A DNA stretch of 64,000 bases from the NCBI GenBank assembly GCA_964551495.1, contig CAZKCA010000001.1:34384-98383 (forward strand). Direction: 5' to 3'. The notes beneath the pieces are model-generated. The model saw only the letters and a list, made by a program, of their open reading frames with translations, was not told the origin of the DNA and did no database searches. Shown piece by piece: positions 10,453 through 49,238 of this stretch. Position 1 is the stretch's first letter; every line of letters starts with the position of its first letter. A program made the position numbers and the translations under genes. Source of the DNA: an uncultured Candidatus Saccharibacteria bacterium. Its GTDB lineage: Bacteria; Patescibacteriota; Minisyncoccia; Phycocordibacterales; DATDWN01.

Positions 10453-10576
10453 TTATAATTATCATTTACATAATTTTTAATTATTTTTCTATAAAGTATT
10501 GCTAACTAAAAACTTCTTTCTCCTCATCACAATTTTAGAGCACGCATAAATTTCTGCTGAAAAATCGCTGGGTCTT

Positions 10577-10655
10577 CCCTTACAGGGACTGTACACCTTT
10601 CACATTTGATTACAAATGCTCAAGGTCTTGCGAAGCTATAACATAGCTTCTCACT
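10577..10655. repeat. Family C intergenic repeat, copy C1
   Basis: A ~79-nt stretch (cccttacagggactgtacacctttcacatttgattacaaatgctcaaggtcttgcgaagctataacatagcttctcact) is essentially identical to 35790-35868. It contains the perfect hairpin gaagctat-aaca-atagcttc. Confidence 0.7.
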
Positions 10656-29004: not shown

Positions 29005-29033
29005 TTGACAAACAATTTATAGTGTGCTAAGAT
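29005..29033 (+). promoter_or_regulatory. Near-consensus sigma70 promoter driving the orphan RNA at 29040
   Basis: TTGACA (29005-10), a 17-nt spacer, then TGc-TAAGAT (extended -10, 29028-33). Confidence 0.55.
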
Positions 29034-29039
29034 TAATAG

Positions 29040-29408
29040 TAGATAGGGAAGTCTTGTTGGTTCTCTCCCCATCACAGAGCGCGCTCGATGTTCGAGAATC
29101 AACAGGCCCAAGGTTTCGTTTCCCGGAGACCGAAGGGTTGTTAGTTTTGACAGGGATGAGTCTGGGATAGCGGGGTACCGGCACCCAGACAAATTAACAG
29201 GCCTCCTCGACAATACCGCGACAGCGTTTTTCCGGATAAAAACCCCGGGGCGCTTGGTTTAGAGGAAGATATGATCAGTGAGTGCAATGCATGGCAGACA
29301 CTGGGAGAAGACTAGTTCGTTCGTCCCACCGTCCAGTGTGTCGCACAGCTGATCCGGCCGGTTATCCGGCCAAACACGGCAGGGCGGGTTTCCTTCGGGA
29401 TCCCGCCC
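29040..29408 (+). ncRNA. Unclassified GC-rich structured RNA (~370 nt), orphan between uppP and a convergent gene
   Basis: GC content is much higher than the surroundings and no plausible ORF is present. A promoter lies upstream. The 3' end has the intrinsic terminator gggcgggtttccttcgggatcccgccc+TTTT. Confidence 0.5.
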
Positions 29409-29442
29409 TTTTACTTTTAAAATAAAAAAATATAGAAAAGAA

Positions 29443-29510: not shown

Positions 29511-29662
29511 AATCTCTGAAACAACACCTTTCTAGAGACTCCACAGCTTTTGAGCATGGTTCCGTCAAGGCGCCCCTTCTTGACTGATCAAAAGCGAGGA
29601 CTGCTGAACAAACTCGCAGGAGTTTGTGAGGGTGCTCTAGAAAGGTGTTGTAGAGGAGATTT
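29511..29662. repeat. Family B long imperfect-palindrome element, copy B1 (ERIC-like, likely a structured RNA)
   Basis: An 18-bp perfect closing stem (aacaacacctttctagag / ctctagaaaggtgttgt) extends to ~28 bp with an internal loop. Internal hairpins cgtcaag...cttgac and acaaactc-gcag-gagtttgt are present. A homologous copy lies at 32821. Confidence 0.7.
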
Positions 29663-32358: not shown

Positions 32359-32640
32359 TTTTTTTTAAAAAGTGGTATTTATATAAATAGGAAAGGAAAA
32401 GTTTTTGGCAACTTTCAATCCGGATATCCAATTTTTTGCGAGGGATCTCTTCAATTTTGATGAAGAGAGGAAGGAGGAAAAAAGGATTCGCCGAGCAAAG
32501 AAGCCAAGCCGAAGTCACGAGGGGACCGAAAGGAAACCCCCTCGGAACCGTCCGTGCTACCGCGCACGATAGACACAAGCCCCCACATACGTGGGGGCTT
32601 TTGAATATATAAACAACAAGAGACAAATAATTTATCATCG

Positions 32641-32760
32641 TCCTCGGTTTTTGTGAAATAAAGCACTCGAAGCTGGCCTCTCGCCAAACTCGCTACACTC
32701 AAACATGCTCCAGACTTACTTTATTTTCGTCGTTGTTTTCTAATATCCTGTGCAATGTTT
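32641..32760. repeat. Family A repeat, copy A2 (reverse orientation; variant end ctgtgcaatgtttt)
   Basis: cctcggtttttgtgaaataaagcactcgaagctggcctctcgccaaactcgctacactcaaaca... is near-identical to the core of A4 (36052-36175) in reverse. Confidence 0.7.
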
Positions 32761-32820: not shown

Positions 32821-32977
32821 TTTAATCTCCGAAACAACAACTTTTCTGGAGACTCCACAGCTTTTGGGCATGGTTTCGTCAAGGTATTCCTTCTTGACGA
32901 ACCAAAAGCGAGGACTGCCGAACAAACTCGCAGGAGTTTGTGAGGTTGCTCCAGAAAAGTTGTTGTGGAGGAGGTTA
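32821..32977. repeat. Family B element, copy B2
   Basis: Homolog of B1. The closing stem is acaacaacttttctggag / ctccagaaaagttgttgt. Three substitutions or indels relative to B1 are each mirrored in the opposite arm. Confidence 0.7.
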
Positions 32978-35789: not shown

Positions 35790-35868
35790 GTTTTTGCTAT
35801 CCCTTACAGGGACTGTACACCTTTCACATTTGATTACAAATGCTCAAGGTCTTGCGAAGCTATAACAT
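35790..35868. repeat. Family C intergenic repeat, copy C2
   Basis: Near-identical to 10577-10655. Confidence 0.7.
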
Positions 35869-35917
35869 AGCTTCTCACTCGAATATAAAGAAAACAATCT
35901 CCTCAATACGTAGTCTT

Positions 35918-36035: not shown

Positions 36036-36193
36036 TCAAAAGCACACTAATAAAAACATTCGCAGGTTTTTGACTGAAATAACAGCGAGAAGCGCCAGCC
36101 GGAGACACTGTCTGAGCGTAGCGAGTTTGGCGGGAGGCCAGCTTCGAGTGCTTTATTTCACAAAAACCGAGGACGTTTTTAGTGTGTGCTTTT
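36036..36193. repeat. Family A repeat, copy A4 (forward) with copy-specific flanking inverted repeats
   Basis: Core aaaaacattcgcagg...gcgagtttggcgggaggccagcttcgagtgctttatttcacaaaaaccgaggacg. Flanks aaaagcacacta (36036-47) and tagtgtgtgctttt (36180-93) are reverse complements. Confidence 0.7.
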
Positions 36194-39772: not shown

Positions 39773-39868
39773 TGTGTAAAAAATACGGTCTATTGACAAA
39801 AAAGCTTGTTTTATGTAGGTTTATGGCGTTGCCCAAGAGGGCACAGGTTCTTTGAGAGAGGTGATGTA

Positions 39869-40660
39869 GTGCGAAATCTCGCAATCTTGCTTGTACTTTT
39901 CTGCTTTGTCCTTTTGGGCAACGCAAATGTCATCACCCCATCTTTTGATGGGGCACCTGCTGGTGGATGGGTCACGGACCGTTACCAACCCAATGTATTC
40001 GCAGATATCGGCTCTTTTCAGGGCCGAAGCGACGTTCTCCAAATCGGCATCAACGCTGCTCAGGGAATGGGCAACCGTCTTTCTGGCCAGAACGGTCAGT
40101 TCTACAATACACAGGGTATGCAGTACCTTGTGTCGGGTGGAGTTGGGTCATCCATCTCAGCTGATCTGTGGATCCCGGAAGAGTGGCGAAGCGAGCTGAA
40201 TGGTTCGCGGCGGACCGACATCTGGGGAATCATGACTGATGGTACAAATGTCACAGGGTACCTCATTTTGGGATTCACCAATTATGGAGGGACTCCAACC
40301 TTCAGGGCGTGGGAAGATACTGTTGGCAGTTGGCAGATTCTCGCCAATCCCATCCAATATAATGCATGGAATACTCTTGCGATTGTCTTTCAAGGCACTT
40401 CGTATGAGTTCTATGTAAATGGATCTTTGGCCTGGACAGATAACACAGTCAATGGATCTACCGGGTTCCGAGGCCTGATCATGCAAGCCTACAACTTCAA
40501 CGGGGATGGCTCCCTTAACGCCGTCACCGCAAATGGGACAGGGAATTACTCTGCTCATTGGGCTAATACGTCCGAAGTCCCTGAGCCGGGCACAGTTCTT
40601 CTTTCTGGTCTTGGTCTTCTGGCCCTCGGCCTCTGGCGTCGGCGCCAGCAAAGGCAGTGA
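39869..40660 (+). CDS. Secreted PEP-CTERM sorting-domain protein (high GC, likely horizontally acquired)
   Basis: GTG start after an AGAGAGG Shine-Dalgarno. Signal peptide RNLAILLVLFCFVLLGNA. The C-terminus VPEPGTVLLSGLGLLALGLWRRRQQRQ is a PEP motif, a TM helix and an Arg-rich tail. GC is ~55% against a ~33% genome. Confidence 0.7.
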   Translation: MRNLAILLVLFCFVLLGNANVITPSFDGAPAGGWVTDRYQPNVFADIGSFQGRSDVLQIGINAAQGMGNRLSGQNGQFYNTQGMQYLVSGGVGSSISADLWIPEEWRSELNGSRRTDIWGIMTDGTNVTGYLILGFTNYGGTPTFRAWEDTVGSWQILANPIQYNAWNTLAIVFQGTSYEFYVNGSLAWTDNTVNGSTGFRGLIMQAYNFNGDGSLNAVTANGTGNYSAHWANTSEVPEPGTVLLSGLGLLALGLWRRRQQRQ

Positions 40661-40740: not shown

Positions 40741-40895
40741 AATAAAACAACTCTCAAAAACATTCGCAGATTTTTAGCTAAAACAAAAGCGAGGAACGCC
40801 AGCCGGAGACACTGTCTGAGCGTAGCGAGTTTGGCGAGAGGTCAGTGACGAGCGCTTTGTTTTATAAAAATCGAGGACGGTTTTGAGTGTGTTTT
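40741..40895. repeat. Family A repeat, copy A5 (forward) with flanking inverted repeats
   Basis: Core (40757-40880) aaaacattcgcagatttttagc...gccagccggagacactgtctgagcgtagcgagtttggcgagagg...tcgaggacgg. Flanks aaaacaactctcaaaa and ttttgagtgtgtttt are roughly complementary. Confidence 0.65.
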
Positions 40896-42965: not shown

Positions 42966-44144
42966 TTAATCTATGAAAGTCAAAGCTTTGCCTGTTTTGC
43001 CTCCTCGTCCAGTACGGCCTATACGGTGGATGTAGTCTTCGTATGTAGAAGGCAGTTCATAGTTTATAACGTGACTTACATTTGGTATATCTAACCCTCT
43101 AGCCGCCACATCTGTTGCGACCAGTATCTGACTTTTGTTATCTTTGAATTGATTAAGAGCCCTCTGTCTTTGAGTGTGGTTTTTATTGCCATGAATAGAC
43201 TCTGCTTTGAAACCTCTGGTACCTAGCATTTTAGAAAGATTTTCTACTCCATGTTTTGTTCTACCAAAAATCAAAACTTTATTAAATTCTGGTTTTGAAA
43301 GTAAATTGTGAAGTATTTCTAACTTTGGTCCGTTTTTAACATACACTACATCCTGATCTACGCTGTGAGCAGTATCTCTTGTTTTAACAGAAATATTTAC
43401 AGGGTCATTTAAAAATTCTTTTATGATTTTGTTTATATCTGGAGATATTGTAGCTGAAAAGAAAAGAGTTTGTTTTTCTTTTGGCATAGATTTTACTAGA
43501 AATCTCATATCATTTATAAATCCCATATCTAGCATTCTATCTGATTCGTCCAAGACTATTGTTTGGAATTTGTTTAGTTCTATATTTCCTCTGTCTACCA
43601 AATCTTTTATTCTTCCAGGTGTTCCAATAACAAAGTTGTAGCTACGACGAAGATCGTTTATTTGTCTAAATATAGGCATTCCTCCTACTACACAAACAGA
43701 AAATATAGATAGACCAAAAGCAAATTTTGTCAGTTCTTGATTTATCTGTATTGCCAATTCTCTTGTTGGAGCAACTATCAAAACTTTCTGATTTTTGTTT
43801 TTAAATATTTTATTTAAAAGGGGAATAACAAAAGCAGCAGTTTTACCTGTTCCTGTGTTGGCGATACCAACAATATCTCTGTTTTGTAGAATAAAAGGGA
43901 TGGATTCGTCTTGGATGGGTGTAGGGTGAAGGTATCCATGTCTAAGTACATTATCTTTTAATTTTTGTTCAATAGGGAAATCAGCAAATGAATTTGTTGG
44001 AATATAAGGTTTTTCTTCCACAACCAAATCAGCTTTTTTTATAAACTTTGAAACATCACTAAAGTATTTATTATTTACACGAGGTTTTCTAAATGCTCGG
44101 TAGTTACCGGAGTTTTGACCCCGGTTAATTCGTTTTCTAAACAT
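42966..44144 (-). CDS. DEAD-box ATP-dependent RNA helicase
   Basis: Q-motif region, AxTGTGKT (ANTGTGKTAAF), PTRELA, DESDRM (DEAD variant), SAT and HRIGRTGR motifs. Confidence 0.85.
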   Translation of the reverse strand: MFRKRINRGQNSGNYRAFRKPRVNNKYFSDVSKFIKKADLVVEEKPYIPTNSFADFPIEQKLKDNVLRHGYLHPTPIQDESIPFILQNRDIVGIANTGTGKTAAFVIPLLNKIFKNKNQKVLIVAPTRELAIQINQELTKFAFGLSIFSVCVVGGMPIFRQINDLRRSYNFVIGTPGRIKDLVDRGNIELNKFQTIVLDESDRMLDMGFINDMRFLVKSMPKEKQTLFFSATISPDINKIIKEFLNDPVNISVKTRDTAHSVDQDVVYVKNGPKLEILHNLLSKPEFNKVLIFGRTKHGVENLSKMLGTRGFKAESIHGNKNHTQRQRALNQFKDNKSQILVATDVAARGLDIPNVSHVINYELPSTYEDYIHRIGRTGRGGKTGKALTFID

Positions 44145-44326
44145 ATTATTCTTCTAGTCTTTAGATTAAAGAGTAAGACGACTAGGTCTCTCGTAAATTC
44201 CAAGAAGAATATATTGTTTTGAGAGATATAACTTACATTCTTTATTATATTACAATCAAATTATTTTGTCAAATAAAATAAACCACAATATGTGGTTTAT
44301 TTTATTAAATCATTTTTGTTTATTTG

Positions 44327-45283
44327 TTAGTTTGCAGGTGTAACAAATGAATTTTGACTTGAGGTGCTTGTATTTCCAGCTGGATCCTTGGCACTAATTA
44401 TAAAGTAATATGTTGTAGATGTTGCTAGATTATTTAGCATAACCTCATGATTTACCTTAAACACATTTGAGTTTATAACAGGAGTTGTTGAACTGACTGT
44501 CAAAGGAGTTGTTGTTCCGTAGAATATTTTTCCTATAGTTAATTCGTTTGTGTTCCATGTCACTTTTGTAGAAGTAGCATTTGTTGAACTAGAAACTATA
44601 GAAGATATTGTTGGAGCAATTGTATCAGGTGTTGTTGTAGGTTTGTTCCAGTCTATTTTATCCTGGATTCCTTTAGGTAGTTTTTGACACTCAGGAACTA
44701 CAGGTCTTTGACCATTATTTTTCTTTAACCATCCTGGGGCAATTTGGTGTCCGGGTGGAGTTATAACACAAAGTTTTTTTCCTTTACCTCTGTTGTCATC
44801 ATCACCATCGTCATCATCATCGTCCTCAGAGTATAACTTAAGGTCAGATATTTTTTCATTTAATTTTTGTAGTGTCTTTGGTCCTACTACTCCAACTGTT
44901 TCTATACCATTTTTTCTTTGGAATTTTCTAACAGCCTCTGATGTAAGTCTGCCATAATATCCTGTTATTAAACCTTCAGGGTATATTTCAGGGTCAGCTG
45001 CAAGAATTGCTTGTAAAGCTTTTACATCATCTCCTGTCATACCTTCTCTTAGATTCCTAATCATAGATAGGGTACTGGAAACACTTTCTCTTGCTGTTTC
45101 TACTTGAGCCTGGGCTGCTTTTAGGGATTCAATTTGAGCTGTTAAAGTTTTTATTTGTTCAAGCAAAGCTTGTACTTGGGCTGAGCTTGTAGTTGTTGTG
45201 ACAGTTTCAGCTTTGGCTATTCCAGTGAAACCAAAAACAAAAGCTAAAACTAATACAAAAGTTATTAATTTTTTAATGTTCAT
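44327..45283 (-). CDS. Secreted protein with a peptidoglycan-binding (PG_binding_1-like) domain, poly-Asp tract and a Thr/Ser-rich FN3-like C-terminus
   Basis: Signal peptide MNIKKLITFVLVLAFVFGFTGIAKA, coiled coil, GDDVKALQAILAADPEIYPEGLITGYYGRLTSEAVRKFQ, DDDDDDGDDD. Confidence 0.55.
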   Translation of the reverse strand: MNIKKLITFVLVLAFVFGFTGIAKAETVTTTTSSAQVQALLEQIKTLTAQIESLKAAQAQVETARESVSSTLSMIRNLREGMTGDDVKALQAILAADPEIYPEGLITGYYGRLTSEAVRKFQRKNGIETVGVVGPKTLQKLNEKISDLKLYSEDDDDDDGDDDNRGKGKKLCVITPPGHQIAPGWLKKNNGQRPVVPECQKLPKGIQDKIDWNKPTTTPDTIAPTISSIVSSSTNATSTKVTWNTNELTIGKIFYGTTTPLTVSSTTPVINSNVFKVNHEVMLNNLATSTTYYFIISAKDPAGNTSTSSQNSFVTPAN

Positions 45284-45400
45284 ATTTTAATTTAAATTAT
45301 AATCGCACATACCCCATTTTTTAGGGGTATTCCACTATTATATCAAATTTAGGGGTTTTTTTGTTCTCGCAATCCACATCAATTGGTGCAATTTAATTAC

Positions 45401-45428
45401 TTGACAAATTTTATAGATTTGCTATAAT
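45401..45428 (+). promoter_or_regulatory. Near-consensus sigma70 promoter driving the orphan RNA at 45435
   Basis: TTGACA (45401-06), a 16-nt spacer, then tgc-TATAAT (45423-28). Confidence 0.55.
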
Positions 45429-45434
45429 ATATAG

Positions 45435-45795
45435 TATGAATTGTTCCTTGAGTTCAGGAGGCTTGCCTTACTAGGTAAGTCTCCATCGTTTGACGGGTCC
45501 TAACCCGGGTCCGTGCTTGCCGGACATTAAATATGGTAAGACGGCCTTCCCCGAGGCTTTGTAAATATCGGCTTAAAGAACCTCTTTCAGGGGTTCTCGT
45601 GTCTATCAGACCAAAGCATAAGGGAAATTCTTTTCCCCAGAAAATCCCTGTGTATTGCAGGTTTAGGGTTTGCTTTCTCGAGATAGATACAATCAGGCTG
45701 TGTTTTCTTCAAGTATTTGTTTTCCTAAGGTTTTCTAGAGACCTAGCGAGAATAAGACTTGGCGAAAAACACAGCCTTTTCTATTATTTTAACTT
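45435..45795 (+). ncRNA. Unclassified structured RNA (~360 nt) with a long terminal hairpin and T-tract
   Basis: GC-enriched and without a credible ORF (the 96-aa track ORF is R/C/F-rich junk). The long-range inverted repeat aggctgtgttttc...gaaaaacacagcct (45687-45699 / 45765-45778) is followed by ttttctattatttt. Confidence 0.5.
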
Positions 45796-46227
45796 TAATT
45801 TTTCTTCTATAATTAAATTTTGAAATACATTTACAAATACTGCTTTTAAAGCGGAACAAGATATTATAATTAGTGCTATCGCTACTACTCCCGGAGCATC
45901 ATCCTTATCTGCTACATAAAAAATATAAGGCATACCCAATACGTATAGTCCAGAGATTGTTATTAAACAGTATTTTATATAATTTAAAGATTTAATACAA
46001 TTTTCCGAAAAAAAATTTTTTTTATAAATATAATCTAAAACTAACCAAGTTTGGTAGAGGATAACAAAAAATGGTATGGCAGTTATATACATACCTAAAA
46101 GTATAGGATCATAGCCTCCTAAATCTATACCTCCAATTACTCTTGGTAACACGAAAGTAAAAAAACCTATTCCTGCAAGACTAATAATAATTAAGACTGT
46201 TTTTAATATCCAAATCGAGATTTTCAT
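45784..46227 (-). CDS. Hypothetical integral membrane protein
   Basis: Four predicted TM helices. No family recognised. Confidence 0.45.
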   Translation of the reverse strand: MKISIWILKTVLIIISLAGIGFFTFVLPRVIGGIDLGGYDPILLGMYITAIPFFVILYQTWLVLDYIYKKNFFSENCIKSLNYIKYCLITISGLYVLGMPYIFYVADKDDAPGVVAIALIIISCSALKAVFVNVFQNLIIEEKLKLK

Positions 46228-46251
46228 AAATTCAATTTATCACTATTTATT

Positions 46252-46479
46252 TTAAAAGAAAACCGCCGATTTCTCGGCGGGTTTGATTTTGTTGAGACTG
46301 GCTTTGCGGTTGTTGTGGGAAACCTTGCCAGTCCGGTGGGAACGAAGAGTGATCTTCTTACCATTTCCGTGGCTGTTGGGCCTTCCGCTCCAACGATGCT
46401 TGTCGGCGCAGTAAGGACAACAAAGACCTTGGTAGTGAGAAGAAACACTCATCTTTTCCCTAAAAGGGTTTCGGTGCAT
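46252..46479 (-). CDS. rpmB: Putative 50S ribosomal protein bL28 (divergent); the true start may be the internal Met at 46452
   Basis: CPYC...GRPNSHGNGKK...TLRSHR resembles the L28 pattern C..[CT]GK....GNN.SH....K.R..PNLHSHR. Basic composition. Confidence 0.4.
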   Translation of the reverse strand: MHRNPFREKMSVSSHYQGLCCPYCADKHRWSGRPNSHGNGKKITLRSHRTGKVSHNNRKASLNKIKPAEKSAVFF

Positions 46480-46491
46480 GATGTAGGCCTC

Positions 46492-47130
46492 CTAGCCTAT
46501 ATTCATGGTGTCCTCCTTTGGAAAGATCTTAAAATCTGTAATAATTTCATCGGCCAGATTCATTTTTATACATTGCTGTGCGGAGAAGTATGCCCCATGC
46601 ATTTCTCCATGCCTAAATATTTCAGAGATAGTTTCTCGACGAAGACCTGTTCTTTTTTCATACAAAAGAATTCGTTTTTCGGCAATCTCGGTGATTCTCT
46701 CTTGAAAGTATGCAATATCTTTGGCTACCCATTCAGGATCATCGCACACCCACCTCTGCCCATGGCGGATGTAGTGGATAAGCATCCTTGATGATGGTAG
46801 CATAATTCTTCTTCTACACATTTGAACTAGATCGACTGCCATTGAACCACAATCTCCTATAACAACAGCATCTACCGGACAATTTAGAGAGTTGATAACA
46901 TCTCCTAGTTGTAAAATTGGTATGGCAGAACCTCCTCCACTCTGTATCATTAAAGTTATTGGTTCATCACTTATAAAACTAATTTTAACTAGTTCAGATG
47001 CTGTTTTTTGAACAGAATCATCTGTTATTTCTCGACTTACTAATATTCTACGGCAAGAATGCCAGACTTTAGTCCAAGTAGTTATATTGGATTCTTCTAA
47101 TAGGATTCTTTGCTCCTTATTTTCAGACAT
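46492..47130 (-). CDS. Divergent ClpP-like (peptidase S14 family) protein
   Basis: ClpP fold landmarks: MIQSGGGS (compare YINSPGGS), GDCGSMAV (compare GQAASMG, Ser present) and LIHYI (compare MIHQP, His present). The usual Asp of the triad is not recognisable. Confidence 0.55.
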   Translation of the reverse strand: MSENKEQRILLEESNITTWTKVWHSCRRILVSREITDDSVQKTASELVKISFISDEPITLMIQSGGGSAIPILQLGDVINSLNCPVDAVVIGDCGSMAVDLVQMCRRRIMLPSSRMLIHYIRHGQRWVCDDPEWVAKDIAYFQERITEIAEKRILLYEKRTGLRRETISEIFRHGEMHGAYFSAQQCIKMNLADEIITDFKIFPKEDTMNIG

Positions 47131-47193
47131 TTCTGACCTCCTTTCTTCAAGATTTATATAATTTTATTATTATTTTGTCAAATTTGCTCCGCG

Positions 47194-47221
47194 ACCAAGG
47201 GATCTCGAATCTTACAGATTC
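47194..47221 (-). repeat. Degenerate partial copy of the tRNA-Asn 3' end (acceptor plus T-arm), possible att-site scar
   Basis: ttgctccgcgaccaagggatctcgaatc versus the tRNA's ttgctccgcgaccagggctcgaacc, 158 bp away in the same orientation. Confidence 0.55.
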
Positions 47222-47324
47222 TGTACACCTGTTCTATTTTTTGTTTCCTTTCAGTCACAAAAAATTATCACAGGTCTTCGAGCCCTGACGTAGATTGATA
47301 ACATCAATCTACTCTCGCGAGCAA

Positions 47325-47352
47325 GACAAAAACGCCTTTCGGCGTCTTTGTT
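47325..47352 (-). terminator. Intrinsic terminator downstream of tRNA-Asn
   Basis: Minus-strand reading: gacgcc-gaaa-ggcgtt followed by TTTTGTCTT. Confidence 0.55.
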
Positions 47353-47354
47353 TG

Positions 47355-47427
47355 CTCCGCGACCAGGGCTCGAACCTGGGACCCTCCCGTTAACAGCGGG
47401 GCGCTCTACCGACTGAGCTATCGCGGA
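47355..47427 (-). tRNA. tRNA-Asn (GTT)
   Basis: Minus strand: TCCGCGA-TA-GCTC-AGTCGGTA-GAGC-G-CCCCG-CTGTTAA-CGGGA-GGGTC-CCAGG-TTCGAGC-CCTGG-TCGCGGA-G. Full cloverleaf with anticodon GTT. CCA is not encoded. Confidence 0.9.
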
Positions 47428-47592
47428 ATATGTAATTTGTTCTGAACACTATTAAATAATGATCAGAATTAATTACGTATTTTCTCACTATCGCGGAATG
47501 TTATACAAATCGTACTAAATAAATAGCACAAACAAATATTATCAAAATTAGGACATAATGCAACCCTTATGATTGTGGTTTATAATTTGGTT

Positions 47593-47864: not shown

Positions 47865-48230
47865 ATGAATATAAAAATCACTTCAACAAATTTTGAACTT
47901 ACTCCGGCTATAGAAGAATATATTACAAAAAAAATAACTGCACTGGATAAGTTTATGGCAGGTGAGGACGGAGCTCTTTGTGAAGTGGAAATTGGAAAAA
48001 CCACAAATCGTCATAAGTCAGGAGATATTTTTAAAGCTGAAGCTAATTTGTTTTATAAAGGAAATCAACATTACTGTGTAGTTGAAAAAGATGATTTGTA
48101 TGCGTCTATAGATGAATTGAAAGATGAATTGGAAAGATCTTTTATTTCAAATAAAGGAAAAAAGAATACTTTGTTTAGAAAAGGAGCATTAAAAGTTAAA
48201 AATTTATTAAAAAGATTATATGGAAATTAA
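47865..48230 (+). CDS. hpf: Ribosome hibernation-promoting factor (HPF/RaiA)
   Basis: MNIKITSTNFELTPAIEEYITKKITALDKF is a typical HPF N-terminus. Confidence 0.8.
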   Translation: MNIKITSTNFELTPAIEEYITKKITALDKFMAGEDGALCEVEIGKTTNRHKSGDIFKAEANLFYKGNQHYCVVEKDDLYASIDELKDELERSFISNKGKKNTLFRKGALKVKNLLKRLYGN

Positions 48231-48380: not shown

Positions 48381-49238
48381 TTAGCGCAGACCATTTTTAA
48401 AAGCATCAAAATCCATTTCTTTTTTACCTTCGGGTATAACTTTTTCTAGTATCAATTTACCATCTTCCAATCTGGCCGATTTTATTGAAAGTTTTATATT
48501 TTTGTCTTTGTGTTTATAAAAAGTAAAAGCTACAGGCCAAATATTATAAGCTCTTATTTTTCTTAAGTTTATTTGAGGATCATCTTCCAGATTTATCTGA
48601 CCGTCTTCTTTTTGTATTTTTTTACAAAAAGTAGCCTTACTGTGATCCTGTTCTGTTTCTTTGATTTTTCCATCTGTCCATTTTGGTAAAACTTCGGCCA
48701 ATATTTCTCCTCCTTTTTGCCCCAATATTTCTTCTAGTTTATCAGCATAAGGTGGCCAATCTACAGTCTCAATTTTTTCTTGGGCTATTATTGGACCATG
48801 ATCCATTTCAGCATCTAGTTTTATAATAGTTACCCCAGTTTCATTTTCTTCTAATATAGAACTTTGGATAGGGGAGGCCCCTCTTAGTTTTGGTAAAAGA
48901 GAAGGGTGGACATTTAATGTTCCAAATTTAGGTAAATCTAAAATATTTTGTGGAATTATTTTGCCATATGAAGCCACTATAAAAACATCACTAGATAAAG
49001 TTTTTTCTTTTATTAGATCAAAAACAGAAGAATCTTTTAGACTTTTTGGTTGTATAAAAGGTATGTTTTCTTTTATAGCCCAAGATTTAACTTCGGATGG
49101 AGTTAGAATCAGTTTTCTTCCTTTTGGTTTATCTTCTGTGGTTATTATTAATGATGGAACAAAACCGTTTTCTTTTAGTTTTTCTAAAACTAAAACAGAA
49201 AATTTTGATGTTCCAAAAAAAGTAAAATTTATTTTCAT
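48381..49238 (-). CDS. fmt: Methionyl-tRNA formyltransferase
   Basis: Formyl-transferase motif ...LNVHPSLLPKLRGASPIQSSIL. Lies downstream of def in the conserved priA–def–fmt arrangement. Confidence 0.85.
   Translation of the reverse strand: MKINFTFFGTSKFSVLVLEKLKENGFVPSLIITTEDKPKGRKLILTPSEVKSWAIKENIPFIQPKSLKDSSVFDLIKEKTLSSDVFIVASYGKIIPQNILDLPKFGTLNVHPSLLPKLRGASPIQSSILEENETGVTIIKLDAEMDHGPIIAQEKIETVDWPPYADKLEEILGQKGGEILAEVLPKWTDGKIKETEQDHSKATFCKKIQKEDGQINLEDDPQINLRKIRAYNIWPVAFTFYKHKDKNIKLSIKSARLEDGKLILEKVIPEGKKEMDFDAFKNGLR

Follow-up and report, generated by a model that had tools for sequence, protein, structure and literature searches.

A predicted stand-alone structured RNA in a patescibacterial genome, outside the described RNA families

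Results

A consensus promoter and an intrinsic terminator bracket the predicted transcript

We analyzed a 64,000-nucleotide (nt) stretch of DNA (here called the window, with positions counted from its first letter) from contig CAZKCA010000001.1 of an uncultured Candidatus Saccharibacteria bacterium, focusing on a candidate structured RNA gene on the plus strand at about 45435 to 45790. The gene lies between two minus-strand genes, one encoding a PG_binding_1 protein whose N terminus bears a hydrophobic, signal-like segment (44327 to 45283) and the other a convergent DUF2975 membrane protein (45784 to 46227). These are the secreted PG-binding protein and the membrane protein named in an initial annotation, which was made from the sequence alone and described an orphan structured RNA of ~360 nt at this site.

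Upstream of the predicted transcript, the −35 hexamer TTGACA (45401 to 45406) is followed by a 16-nt spacer that ends in TGc and by the −10 hexamer TATAAT (45423 to 45428), with the TG at 45420 to 45421 forming an extended −10 element (45420 to 45428). This promoter (45401 to 45428) matches the sigma-70 consensus at 12 of 12 positions plus the TG, just as annotated, and both hexamers and the extension are identical in a related copy of the RNA (L014, from Logan assembly SRR12487026). Perfect TTGACA-N16-18-TATAAT sites number 2 in the 64-kb window, versus 0.11 expected from dinucleotide shuffles. Transcription of the RNA would likely start at 45434 to 45436.

At the other end, AGGCTGTGTTTTC (45695 to 45707) pairs with GAAAAACACAGCCT (45764 to 45777) in a 13-bp, G+C-containing stem, followed by TTTTCTATTATTTT. 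The annotated long-range stem is thus present, and it forms the base of an 83-nt hairpin (45695 to 45777). The T-tract of this intrinsic terminator (45778 to 45790, plus strand) overlaps the final codons and the stop codon (45784 to 45786) of the convergent DUF2975 gene. Between these two signals, the predicted transcript (45435 to 45790) would be ~345 to 356 nt long, with its 3′ end within the T-tract. Its G+C content is 43% (over 356 nt), compared with 27 to 39% in most of the window, which bears out its description as GC enriched.

The earlier claim that the transcript lacks a credible open reading frame (ORF) also stood. The sole long ORF (45533 to 45823, 96 codons) has no Shine-Dalgarno (SD) sequence, is rich in Arg, Cys, and Phe, and has no Pfam match. 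It runs across the terminator to a stop codon 30 nt beyond, and +2 and −2 indels in L014 shift the frame of 16 of its codons.

The predicted fold is strand specific and modular

The plus strand of the transcript folds with a minimum free energy (MFE) of −130.9 kcal/mol (z = −7.0 against dinucleotide shuffles), compared with −100.4 kcal/mol (z = −3.5) for the minus strand. As an outlier test, 716 segments of equal length across the 64 kb were folded, and MFE was regressed on G+C content. In this GC-corrected scan, the plus strand of the RNA ranked 3rd of 716 (residual, −40.6 kcal/mol) and the minus strand was ordinary (z = −0.8); the two segments that outranked the RNA were both strands of a single region around the tRNA-Asn gene. 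The asymmetry arises because 14 to 16 G·U pairs of the plus-strand fold would become A·C mismatches on the other strand.

Five modules are present in all predicted folds of both the window copy and L014 (45457 to 45484, 45494 to 45507, 45508 to 45546, 45576 to 45596, and 45695 to 45777, all on the plus strand). The first belongs to a 5′ stem-loop (45448 to 45493) built on a perfect 12-bp hairpin, GGAGGCUUGCCU/AGGUAAGUCUCC, with the loop UACU (45457 to 45484); a lower stem (45448 to 45454 with 45487 to 45493) extends it. The 12-bp hairpin is invariant between the two copies and buries GGAGG against UCUCC. Next comes a short G+C hairpin of the form CGGG(U)-loop-(A)CCCG (45494 to 45507), in which both L014 substitutions fall within or beside the loop. 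This element displaces a pairing in the initial annotation, acgggtcc with gggtccgt (45493 to 45514), which did not hold up: 2 of its 8 pairs are lost in L014 (U64G and C66G), and both copies favor the shorter hairpin plus a downstream branched helix over it.

The third module is an interrupted G+C-rich stem (45508 to 45546) capped by the 11-nt loop GACAUUAAAUA. It consists of three stacked helices (RNA pairs 74-75/111-112, 77-80/107-110, and 82-88/100-106), and two neighboring L014 substitutions in it retain their pairs (G-U to G-C and U-A to U-G). A further hairpin, GAACCUCU/GGGGUUC (45576 to 45596), is one pair longer in L014 through an AG insertion, and a 2-nt deletion in that copy shortens one hairpin by one pair. 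Between this hairpin and the terminator, a three-way-junction domain (45599 to 45691) closed by the helix GUGUCUAUC/GAUAGAUAC appears in both the MFE and the centroid folds of the window copy and L014, and A171G in L014 retains its pair there (A-U to G-U). This domain is the least certain part of the fold because a competing pairing of 45547 to 45561 with 45612 to 45626 costs only ~3 kcal/mol more. The last module, the 83-nt terminal hairpin, is near perfect, with ~38 bp that include several G·U pairs, which make it specific to the plus strand; it is far longer than terminator function requires.

The predicted transcription unit is conserved in a related strain

The organism was seen in SRR12989705 and SRR12977061. 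Beyond an identical copy of the RNA in one Logan assembly (L001), a complete and diverged copy was found in L014, next to a gene for a DUF2975 protein 89% identical to that of the window. A second contig from the same sample (L008) encodes a PG-binding protein 88% identical to the window's and stops short of the promoter by a few bases. The assembly of this strain breaks right where the promoter starts, with the end of L008 and the beginning of L014 both at the equivalent of 45393 to 45397, and these contigs evidently adjoin each other. When the strain is compared with the window, identity is 94% in the promoter and 95.5 to 96% in the RNA, versus 86% in the DUF2975 coding sequence, 88% in the PG-binding coding sequence, 89% in the helicase coding sequence, and 77% in the spacer upstream of the promoter. 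Identity falls abruptly just past the T-tract, so that the limits of conservation are those of the predicted transcription unit.

The L014 copy folds at −141.4 kcal/mol (z = −7.6) and differs from the window RNA by 12 substitutions. In the two-sequence consensus fold computed with RNAalifold (113 pairs), 6 paired positions are changed and all 6 keep their pair, through exchanges between G-U and G-C, U-A and U-G, or A-U and G-U; two convert G·U to G-C. In the 7-bp stem around the 5′ hairpin, U19C and U20G both strengthen pairing (U·G to C-G and U·C to G-C). The last 141 nt of the RNA carry a single substitution, which lies in the terminal hairpin (U·G to C-G), and the other changes are located in loops or junctions. 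When placed on the window sequence, the 12 natural substitutions gave an MFE of −138.7 kcal/mol, compared with −124.2 ± 5.4 kcal/mol for 400 random mutants carrying substitutions of the same types; 0.5% of these mutants were as stable. Evidence for selection on structure is real, if modest.

A second predicted RNA has similar promoter elements

Another orphan RNA lies 16 kb from the first, on the plus strand at 29005 to 29415. Its promoter, TTGACAaacaatttatagtgTGcTAAGAT, is followed by a G+C-rich stretch of ~380 nt and a strong terminator. The promoter elements CTTGACAAA, TTTATAG, TGCTA, and ATAGTA are common to the two RNAs, and this common architecture suggests a set of strongly expressed, stable RNAs. 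The RNA itself (29035 to 29415) folds at −151.5 kcal/mol (z = −4.4), has no Rfam match at E ≤ 10, and has no sequence similarity to the RNA at 45435. A third G+C-rich segment (about 32400 to 32605, plus strand) ends in a clear terminator (AGCCCCCACATACGTGGGGGCTTTT) and possibly encodes a further small RNA; it has neither an obvious ORF nor a consensus −35 box.

The RNA matches no described family

We searched Rfam 15 with the whole window at gathering thresholds and with 751 and 271 nt around the RNA in a permissive E-value mode (E ≤ 10 for the 271 nt). At gathering thresholds, the tRNA-Asn gene was the only match. The permissive searches of 751 and 271 nt returned only microRNA-like and snoRNA-like hairpin noise at 10 to 24 bits, and no known family was assigned. 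RNase P RNA (RF00010/RF00011) went undetected at gathering thresholds and down to ~10 bits, and ARAGORN, run on the window, reported the tRNA-Asn gene and no transfer-messenger RNA (tmRNA). The annotated lack of RNase P, tmRNA, and signal recognition particle (SRP) hallmarks is in keeping with these searches.

Individual classes were also considered on their defining features. For RNase P, we looked for a P4 helix formed from CR-I (GGAAAGUCC), which should follow P1-P3, and CR-V (ACAGAA..GGCUUA), which should be close to the 3′ end of an RNA whose two ends pair in P1, and the spacing was wrong. By eye, a CR-I look-alike, AGGUAAGUC (45473 to 45481), and a P4 3′-strand look-alike, CGGCUUA (45568 to 45574), can be picked out. 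The former is the 3′ strand of the perfect 12-bp hairpin, and the pair was rejected on topology, being 90 nt apart with ~210 nt still to follow. A CR-III-like GGUAAG (45535 to 45540) is GGCGAG in L014 with its base pairs kept, as in the evolution of a helix and unlike that of an invariant single-stranded motif. A look-alike of the 11-nt tetraloop receptor (UAUGG/CCUAAG) was likewise rejected, on topology and on the substitutions in the relative. No tRNA-like domain was found by ARAGORN, no T-arm sequence is present, and no tmRNA model matched in Rfam. For SRP RNA, Rfam gave no match and the helix 8 motif of domain IV, with its GGAA-type tetraloop and its conserved loops, both symmetric and asymmetric, was absent on inspection. 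A multibranched fold of ~345 nt, again with no Rfam match, sets the RNA apart from 6S RNA, a rod of ~180 to 200 nt that has a closing stem, a large bubble at its center, and a terminal loop.

Group I introns were rejected as well: the RNA stands free between its promoter and terminator, no exon halves are present, and RF00028 did not match. The covariance models of the OLE, ROOL, GOLLD, raiA, and HEARO RNAs matched at none of the thresholds used. Nor is the RNA a riboswitch or other cis-regulatory leader: its terminator faces a convergent gene, no credible plus-strand ORF occurs before 47865, and with no plus-strand gene downstream, the RNA is therefore not a leader. What was found is what a generic stand-alone bacterial noncoding RNA (ncRNA) gene would have, namely, a promoter, a terminator, no coding capacity, a strand-specific fold, and conservation as a unit. 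All tests run agree with the annotation of an orphan structured RNA of ~360 nt that is distinct from RNase P RNA, tmRNA, and SRP RNA.

Searches for further copies covered loci of related genes and large collections

The ClpP-like protein encoded near the RNA has 28 homologues (46 to 68% identity). We read six of their loci, namely, L002 to L006 (several kb to 17 kb) and L016 (2.6 kb). These six have no conserved gene order, and neither blastn nor nhmmer nor a covariance model covering RNA positions 14 to 258 detected a homologue of the RNA in them. More distant DUF2975 homologues lie in unrelated contexts, probably outside the candidate phyla radiation (CPR), with no such RNA alongside. Within the window, nhmmer and the covariance model found no paralogue.

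Collections were scanned for relatives by exact-word matching. Four patterns gave 0 matches in viral contigs; in JGI metagenomes, a 21-mer gave 0 matches and a 19-mer gave 7, all by chance. An 18-mer that proved too G+C rich to be informative gave at least 119 chance matches in GTDB genomes, in genomes of high G+C content, with no Patescibacteria among the matches listed. A GTDB scan with the ClpP-like protein returned nothing, and blastn matched no phage or plasmid record.

The genomic neighborhood is variable

The RNA is preceded by genes for a DEAD-box helicase (42966 to 44144, minus strand) and the PG-binding protein and followed, beyond the DUF2975 gene, by genes for a small basic protein (46252 to 46479, minus strand), the ClpP-like protease (46492 to 47130, minus strand), tRNA-Asn (47354 to 47427, minus strand), HPF (47865 to 48230, plus strand), and fmt (48381 to 49238, minus strand). 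Homologues of the neighboring proteins are annotated as Patescibacteria, Parcubacteria, Paceibacterota, or Minisyncoccia. The other perfect promoter of the window, TTGACA-17-TATAAT, lies on the minus strand upstream of the helicase gene (44244 to 44306). It abuts a 35-nt A+T-rich palindrome (44272 to 44306), which is probably the terminator of the PG-binding gene.

A block at ~45381 to 47180 of the window is absent from a related genome (L009 to L013), in which the site is bounded by the PG-binding gene and by a tRNA-Asn-like fragment; this absence fits the annotation of the site as an accessory stretch. The left breakpoint is at about 45381 to 45400, directly upstream of the −35 box, and the equivalent site in the relative holds a 56-codon membrane ORF and the tRNA-Asn-like fragment.

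The same insertion/deletion block contains the gene at 46252 to 46479. It has 75 codons, a strong SD sequence (AGGAGG), and a basic, Cys-containing product, in a region of ~50% G+C. The protein has no Pfam or PHROG match and 11 distant homologues, 44 to 56% identical, with the common motif KMSV..Y.G.CC..C....RW....K.TLR.HRTG. In the L014 strain, the DNA of the gene is 99% identical and shows no synonymous change, and the stop codon is lost.

The region around tRNA-Asn (47131 to 47530, minus strand) is the strongest folding outlier of the window (−145.9 kcal/mol, z = −10.3). Here a ~22-bp hairpin is made up of the 3′ acceptor strand of the tRNA and its terminator. At 120 to 170 nt downstream of the tRNA is a degenerate copy of its 3′ end, GATTCGAGATCCCTTGGTCGCGGAGCA (about 47185 to 47230), and a copy of its 5′ end, TTCCGCGATAG (47488 to 47498), lies 60 nt upstream. 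The same 3′ fragment adjoins the PG-binding gene in the relative (contig L012). Either a tRNA pseudogene or an att-like remnant could explain it.

Elsewhere, the window contains interspersed families of short repeats (29511 to 29661 and 32824 to 32976; 40756 to 40892, 36052 to 36187, 353 to 479, and 32639 to 32705; and 35800 to 35879, which equals 10576 to 10655). One family is MITE-like, ~150 nt long, with terminal inverted repeats beginning ACAACACCTTTCTAGAG. The families cluster by the G+C-rich islands of the window, and none flanks the RNA. A PEP-CTERM/Laminin_G_3 gene (39806 to 40660, plus strand) has ~50% G+C, compared with ~33% for the genome, and is followed by its own terminator and then by one repeat element; it was probably acquired from a Gram-negative bacterium.

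Discussion

A probable lineage-restricted RNA gene that may act in trans

The promoter and terminator, the stability of one strand only, and the lack of both a protein and a matching family make a real, lineage-restricted ncRNA gene the most likely explanation of the locus. We put a probability of roughly 0.55 on an independently transcribed, noncoding structured RNA gene that belongs to a narrow lineage of Patescibacteria (Parcubacteria/Paceibacteria-like) and acts in trans. On this reading, RNA polymerase would start at ~45435 from the extended −10 promoter and stop at the intrinsic terminator, whose stem is the unusually long 83-nt hairpin. The computed product of ~345 nt would fold into autonomous modules, in the form of the 12-bp 5′ hairpin, the interrupted stem, a short hairpin, the three-way junction, and the 3′ hairpin. 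Strong transcription and high stability would be expected of it. We infer a stable folded RNA that acts in trans, most probably as a protein-binding or scaffold component of a ribonucleoprotein (RNP), because no gene lies downstream, loops and junctions are conserved as well as stems, the last 141 nt with their overlong hairpin carry one substitution, and promoter elements are common to the orphan RNA at 29035 to 29415. A role as an mRNA, as a leader that regulates in cis, or as no more than an antisense RNA is unlikely.

Several points weigh against this reading. The transcript is a prediction from sequence signals, and the trans-acting RNP mechanism is inference only. In the relative whose PG-binding protein is 85% identical (L009 to L013), the RNA is missing from the equivalent site, and a search of ~115 kb of DNA from more distant relatives yielded no copy. 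Only two distinct sequences are known, 96% identical to each other, and covariation evidence is thin for that reason. A homolog search with covariation analysis, as the initial annotation had proposed, yielded conservation, in L014, and no covariation support, with 0 double compensatory pairs in the two-sequence RNAalifold analysis. Judged against the MFE fold of the window copy only, L014 breaks 3 pairs, of which two are in a weak 5′ hairpin and the third is a closing pair; random changes do as well. In addition, two global folds differ by no more than ~3 kcal/mol. Divergence from the L014 strain is also mosaic, from 1% to 33% per segment. Given this mosaic and the 99% identity, without synonymous change, of the gene at 46252 to 46479, recent recombination, and not only selection, could partly account for the 96% identity of the RNA.

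Alternative explanations of the locus

We considered five alternatives, all improbable, each of which explains less than a trans-acting RNA gene does. The likeliest of them is a convergent or antisense module in which the long hairpin would be a bidirectional terminator and the RNA, overlapping the DUF2975 mRNA at the 3′ ends of both, would control that gene through an RNA duplex or RNase III cleavage. It draws on the position of the DUF2975 stop codon inside the T-tract of the RNA, on the full complementarity that a read-through DUF2975 transcript would have to the 83-nt hairpin, and on the strongest conservation being in the 141 nt that include this hairpin. Such a module would have no need of the ~260 nt of G+C-rich, multihelix RNA upstream of the hairpin, yet these are conserved. 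On the minus strand, moreover, the hairpin loses its G·U pairs and has no clear U-tract, and the more distant DUF2975 genes have no such RNA beside them.

Less probable again is the relic of a mobile or selfish element, be it a degenerate group I intron, an orphaned guide or scaffold RNA, or cargo of an island at tRNA-Asn. The block absent from the relative, the tRNA-Asn gene with incomplete duplicates of its 5′ end and its 3′ end on its flanks, and a G+C content of the RNA atypical for the genome all speak for such an origin. However, none of the Rfam models for group I introns, group II introns, HEARO/omega-RNA, or bridge-type RNAs matched; no integrase, transposase, nuclease, or reverse transcriptase gene lies within 5 kb of the RNA, no repeats flank it, and the same block holds the ClpP-like gene, which is conserved in relatives. 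With its own consensus promoter and terminator, the RNA is therefore not an intron inside an exon.

We give still less credence to a leaderless mRNA for a 12-residue peptide or a dual-function RNA with a translated 5′ peptide. Read from the sequence, the 5′ leader (45436 to 45474, plus strand) contains a 12-codon ORF (MNCSLSSGGLPY*) whose ATG (45436 to 45438) falls exactly at the expected transcription start, 8 nt past the −10 hexamer. The leader is the fastest-evolving part of the RNA, with 3 of the 12 L014 substitutions in its first 22 nt, and in the ORF these are two synonymous third-position changes and one S-to-A change. This pattern is not statistically significant, since 2 of 3 changes would fall at third positions by chance ~26% of the time, and the two changes U19C and U20G also improve pairing around the 5′ hairpin. 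The peptide has no recognizable family or motif, at a length too short for a family scan, and an ORF of 12 residues cannot account for 300 nt of conserved structure.

On a par with the peptide, we place a nonfunctional fragment of acquired G+C-rich DNA that came to lie by chance behind a promoter-like sequence. Clearly foreign G+C-rich DNA does occur in the window, such as the PEP-CTERM gene at 50% G+C, and only a narrow lineage carries the RNA. Against this, the perfect extended −10 promoter and the terminator bracket exactly the conserved unit, the fold reaches a z score of −7 on one strand only, the natural substitutions are structure friendly (P of about 0.005), and the promoter architecture is common to another RNA gene.

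Least probable of all is a highly diverged universal RNA (RNase P, tmRNA, SRP, or 6S RNA) missed by standard models: diverged RNase P RNAs are documented in the CPR (PMC8172020), ~350 nt with a strong promoter and a terminator would suit rnpB or ssrA, and AGGUAAGUC and CGGCUUA could by eye pair around a bulged U, but the 271-nt search at E ≤ 10 gave no match to any of these RNAs even as it listed unrelated ones at 10 to 15 bits, ARAGORN found no tmRNA and no tRNA-like acceptor or T-arm is present, the look-alikes have the wrong topology with GGUAAG changed to GGCGAG in L014, and the RNA is missing from the syntenic site of a relative.

An RNAduplex prediction of targets among translation-initiation regions was discarded as meaningless, as huge interior loops were allowed.

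Significance and comparison with known systems

Among free or episymbiotic bacteria, Patescibacteria have some of the smallest genomes, and they have shed many functions regarded as essential. Here, in a minimal genome, a consensus promoter and ~350 bp are given over to an RNA outside all 4,227 described families. If functional, this RNA and its kind would point to RNA-based machinery yet to be explored in a phylum that accounts for a large part of bacterial diversity, and they would be good targets for the structural work that recently showed unexpected architectures of other large orphan RNAs. Should only a few strains have it, the RNA would be a modest addition to the known lineage-specific small RNAs. 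More speculatively, it might be the founding member of a new large ncRNA class of Parcubacteria-type Patescibacteria, one of several orphan RNAs strongly expressed in such minimal genomes (with the RNA at 29035 to 29415, nearly identical in promoter design, as a second), and part of a dedicated RNP that possibly includes the protein encoded at 46252 to 46479. That gene comes to mind as a partner because it lies in the same block 460 nt away, is G+C rich, and is near-invariant. We consider this extension unlikely. We class the RNA as a new sequence family of stand-alone structured bacterial ncRNA and not as a demonstrated new class.

Among known systems, the diverged RNase P RNAs of CPR bacteria come from the same phylum; for 10 of 35 circular genomes, the RF00010 threshold had to be lowered to 5 bits (Lui et al. 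2021, PMC8172020). The RNA described here resembles them in length, in its strong promoter and terminator, and in its short CR-I and CR-V look-alikes. It differs from them in having no RF00010 or RF00011 match at ~10 bits and in the order and spacing of the motifs. The group I introns found within genes for tRNA-Asn and tRNA-Asp of Patescibacteria (PMC13011429) likewise share its phylum and size range, and the RNA lies 1.6 kb from a tRNA-Asn locus; in contrast to the introns, it is inside no gene and has no recognizable P3-P9 core. With 6S and Ms1 RNAs, it would have in common abundance, stability, action in trans, a strong promoter, and long double-stranded segments. Unlike them, it lacks the single rod with a central bubble that resembles an open promoter, and it has about twice the length of 6S RNA.

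The OLE, ROOL, GOLLD, and raiA classes, large structured bacterial ncRNAs whose functions are unknown or have begun to emerge recently, were discovered as G+C-rich intergenic regions of A+T-rich genomes. The RNA at 45435 has no evident GNRA tetraloop or receptor-type tertiary motif. It is shorter than OLE, ROOL, and GOLLD and is represented by two near-identical sequences, versus hundreds for those classes, with a fold that has no covariation support. In other respects it is like all four: it lies in a variable region near a tRNA gene, in a context that does not reveal its function, and it is a stand-alone, G+C-rich, multihelix RNA of several hundred nucleotides, free of an ORF, in an A+T-rich genome.

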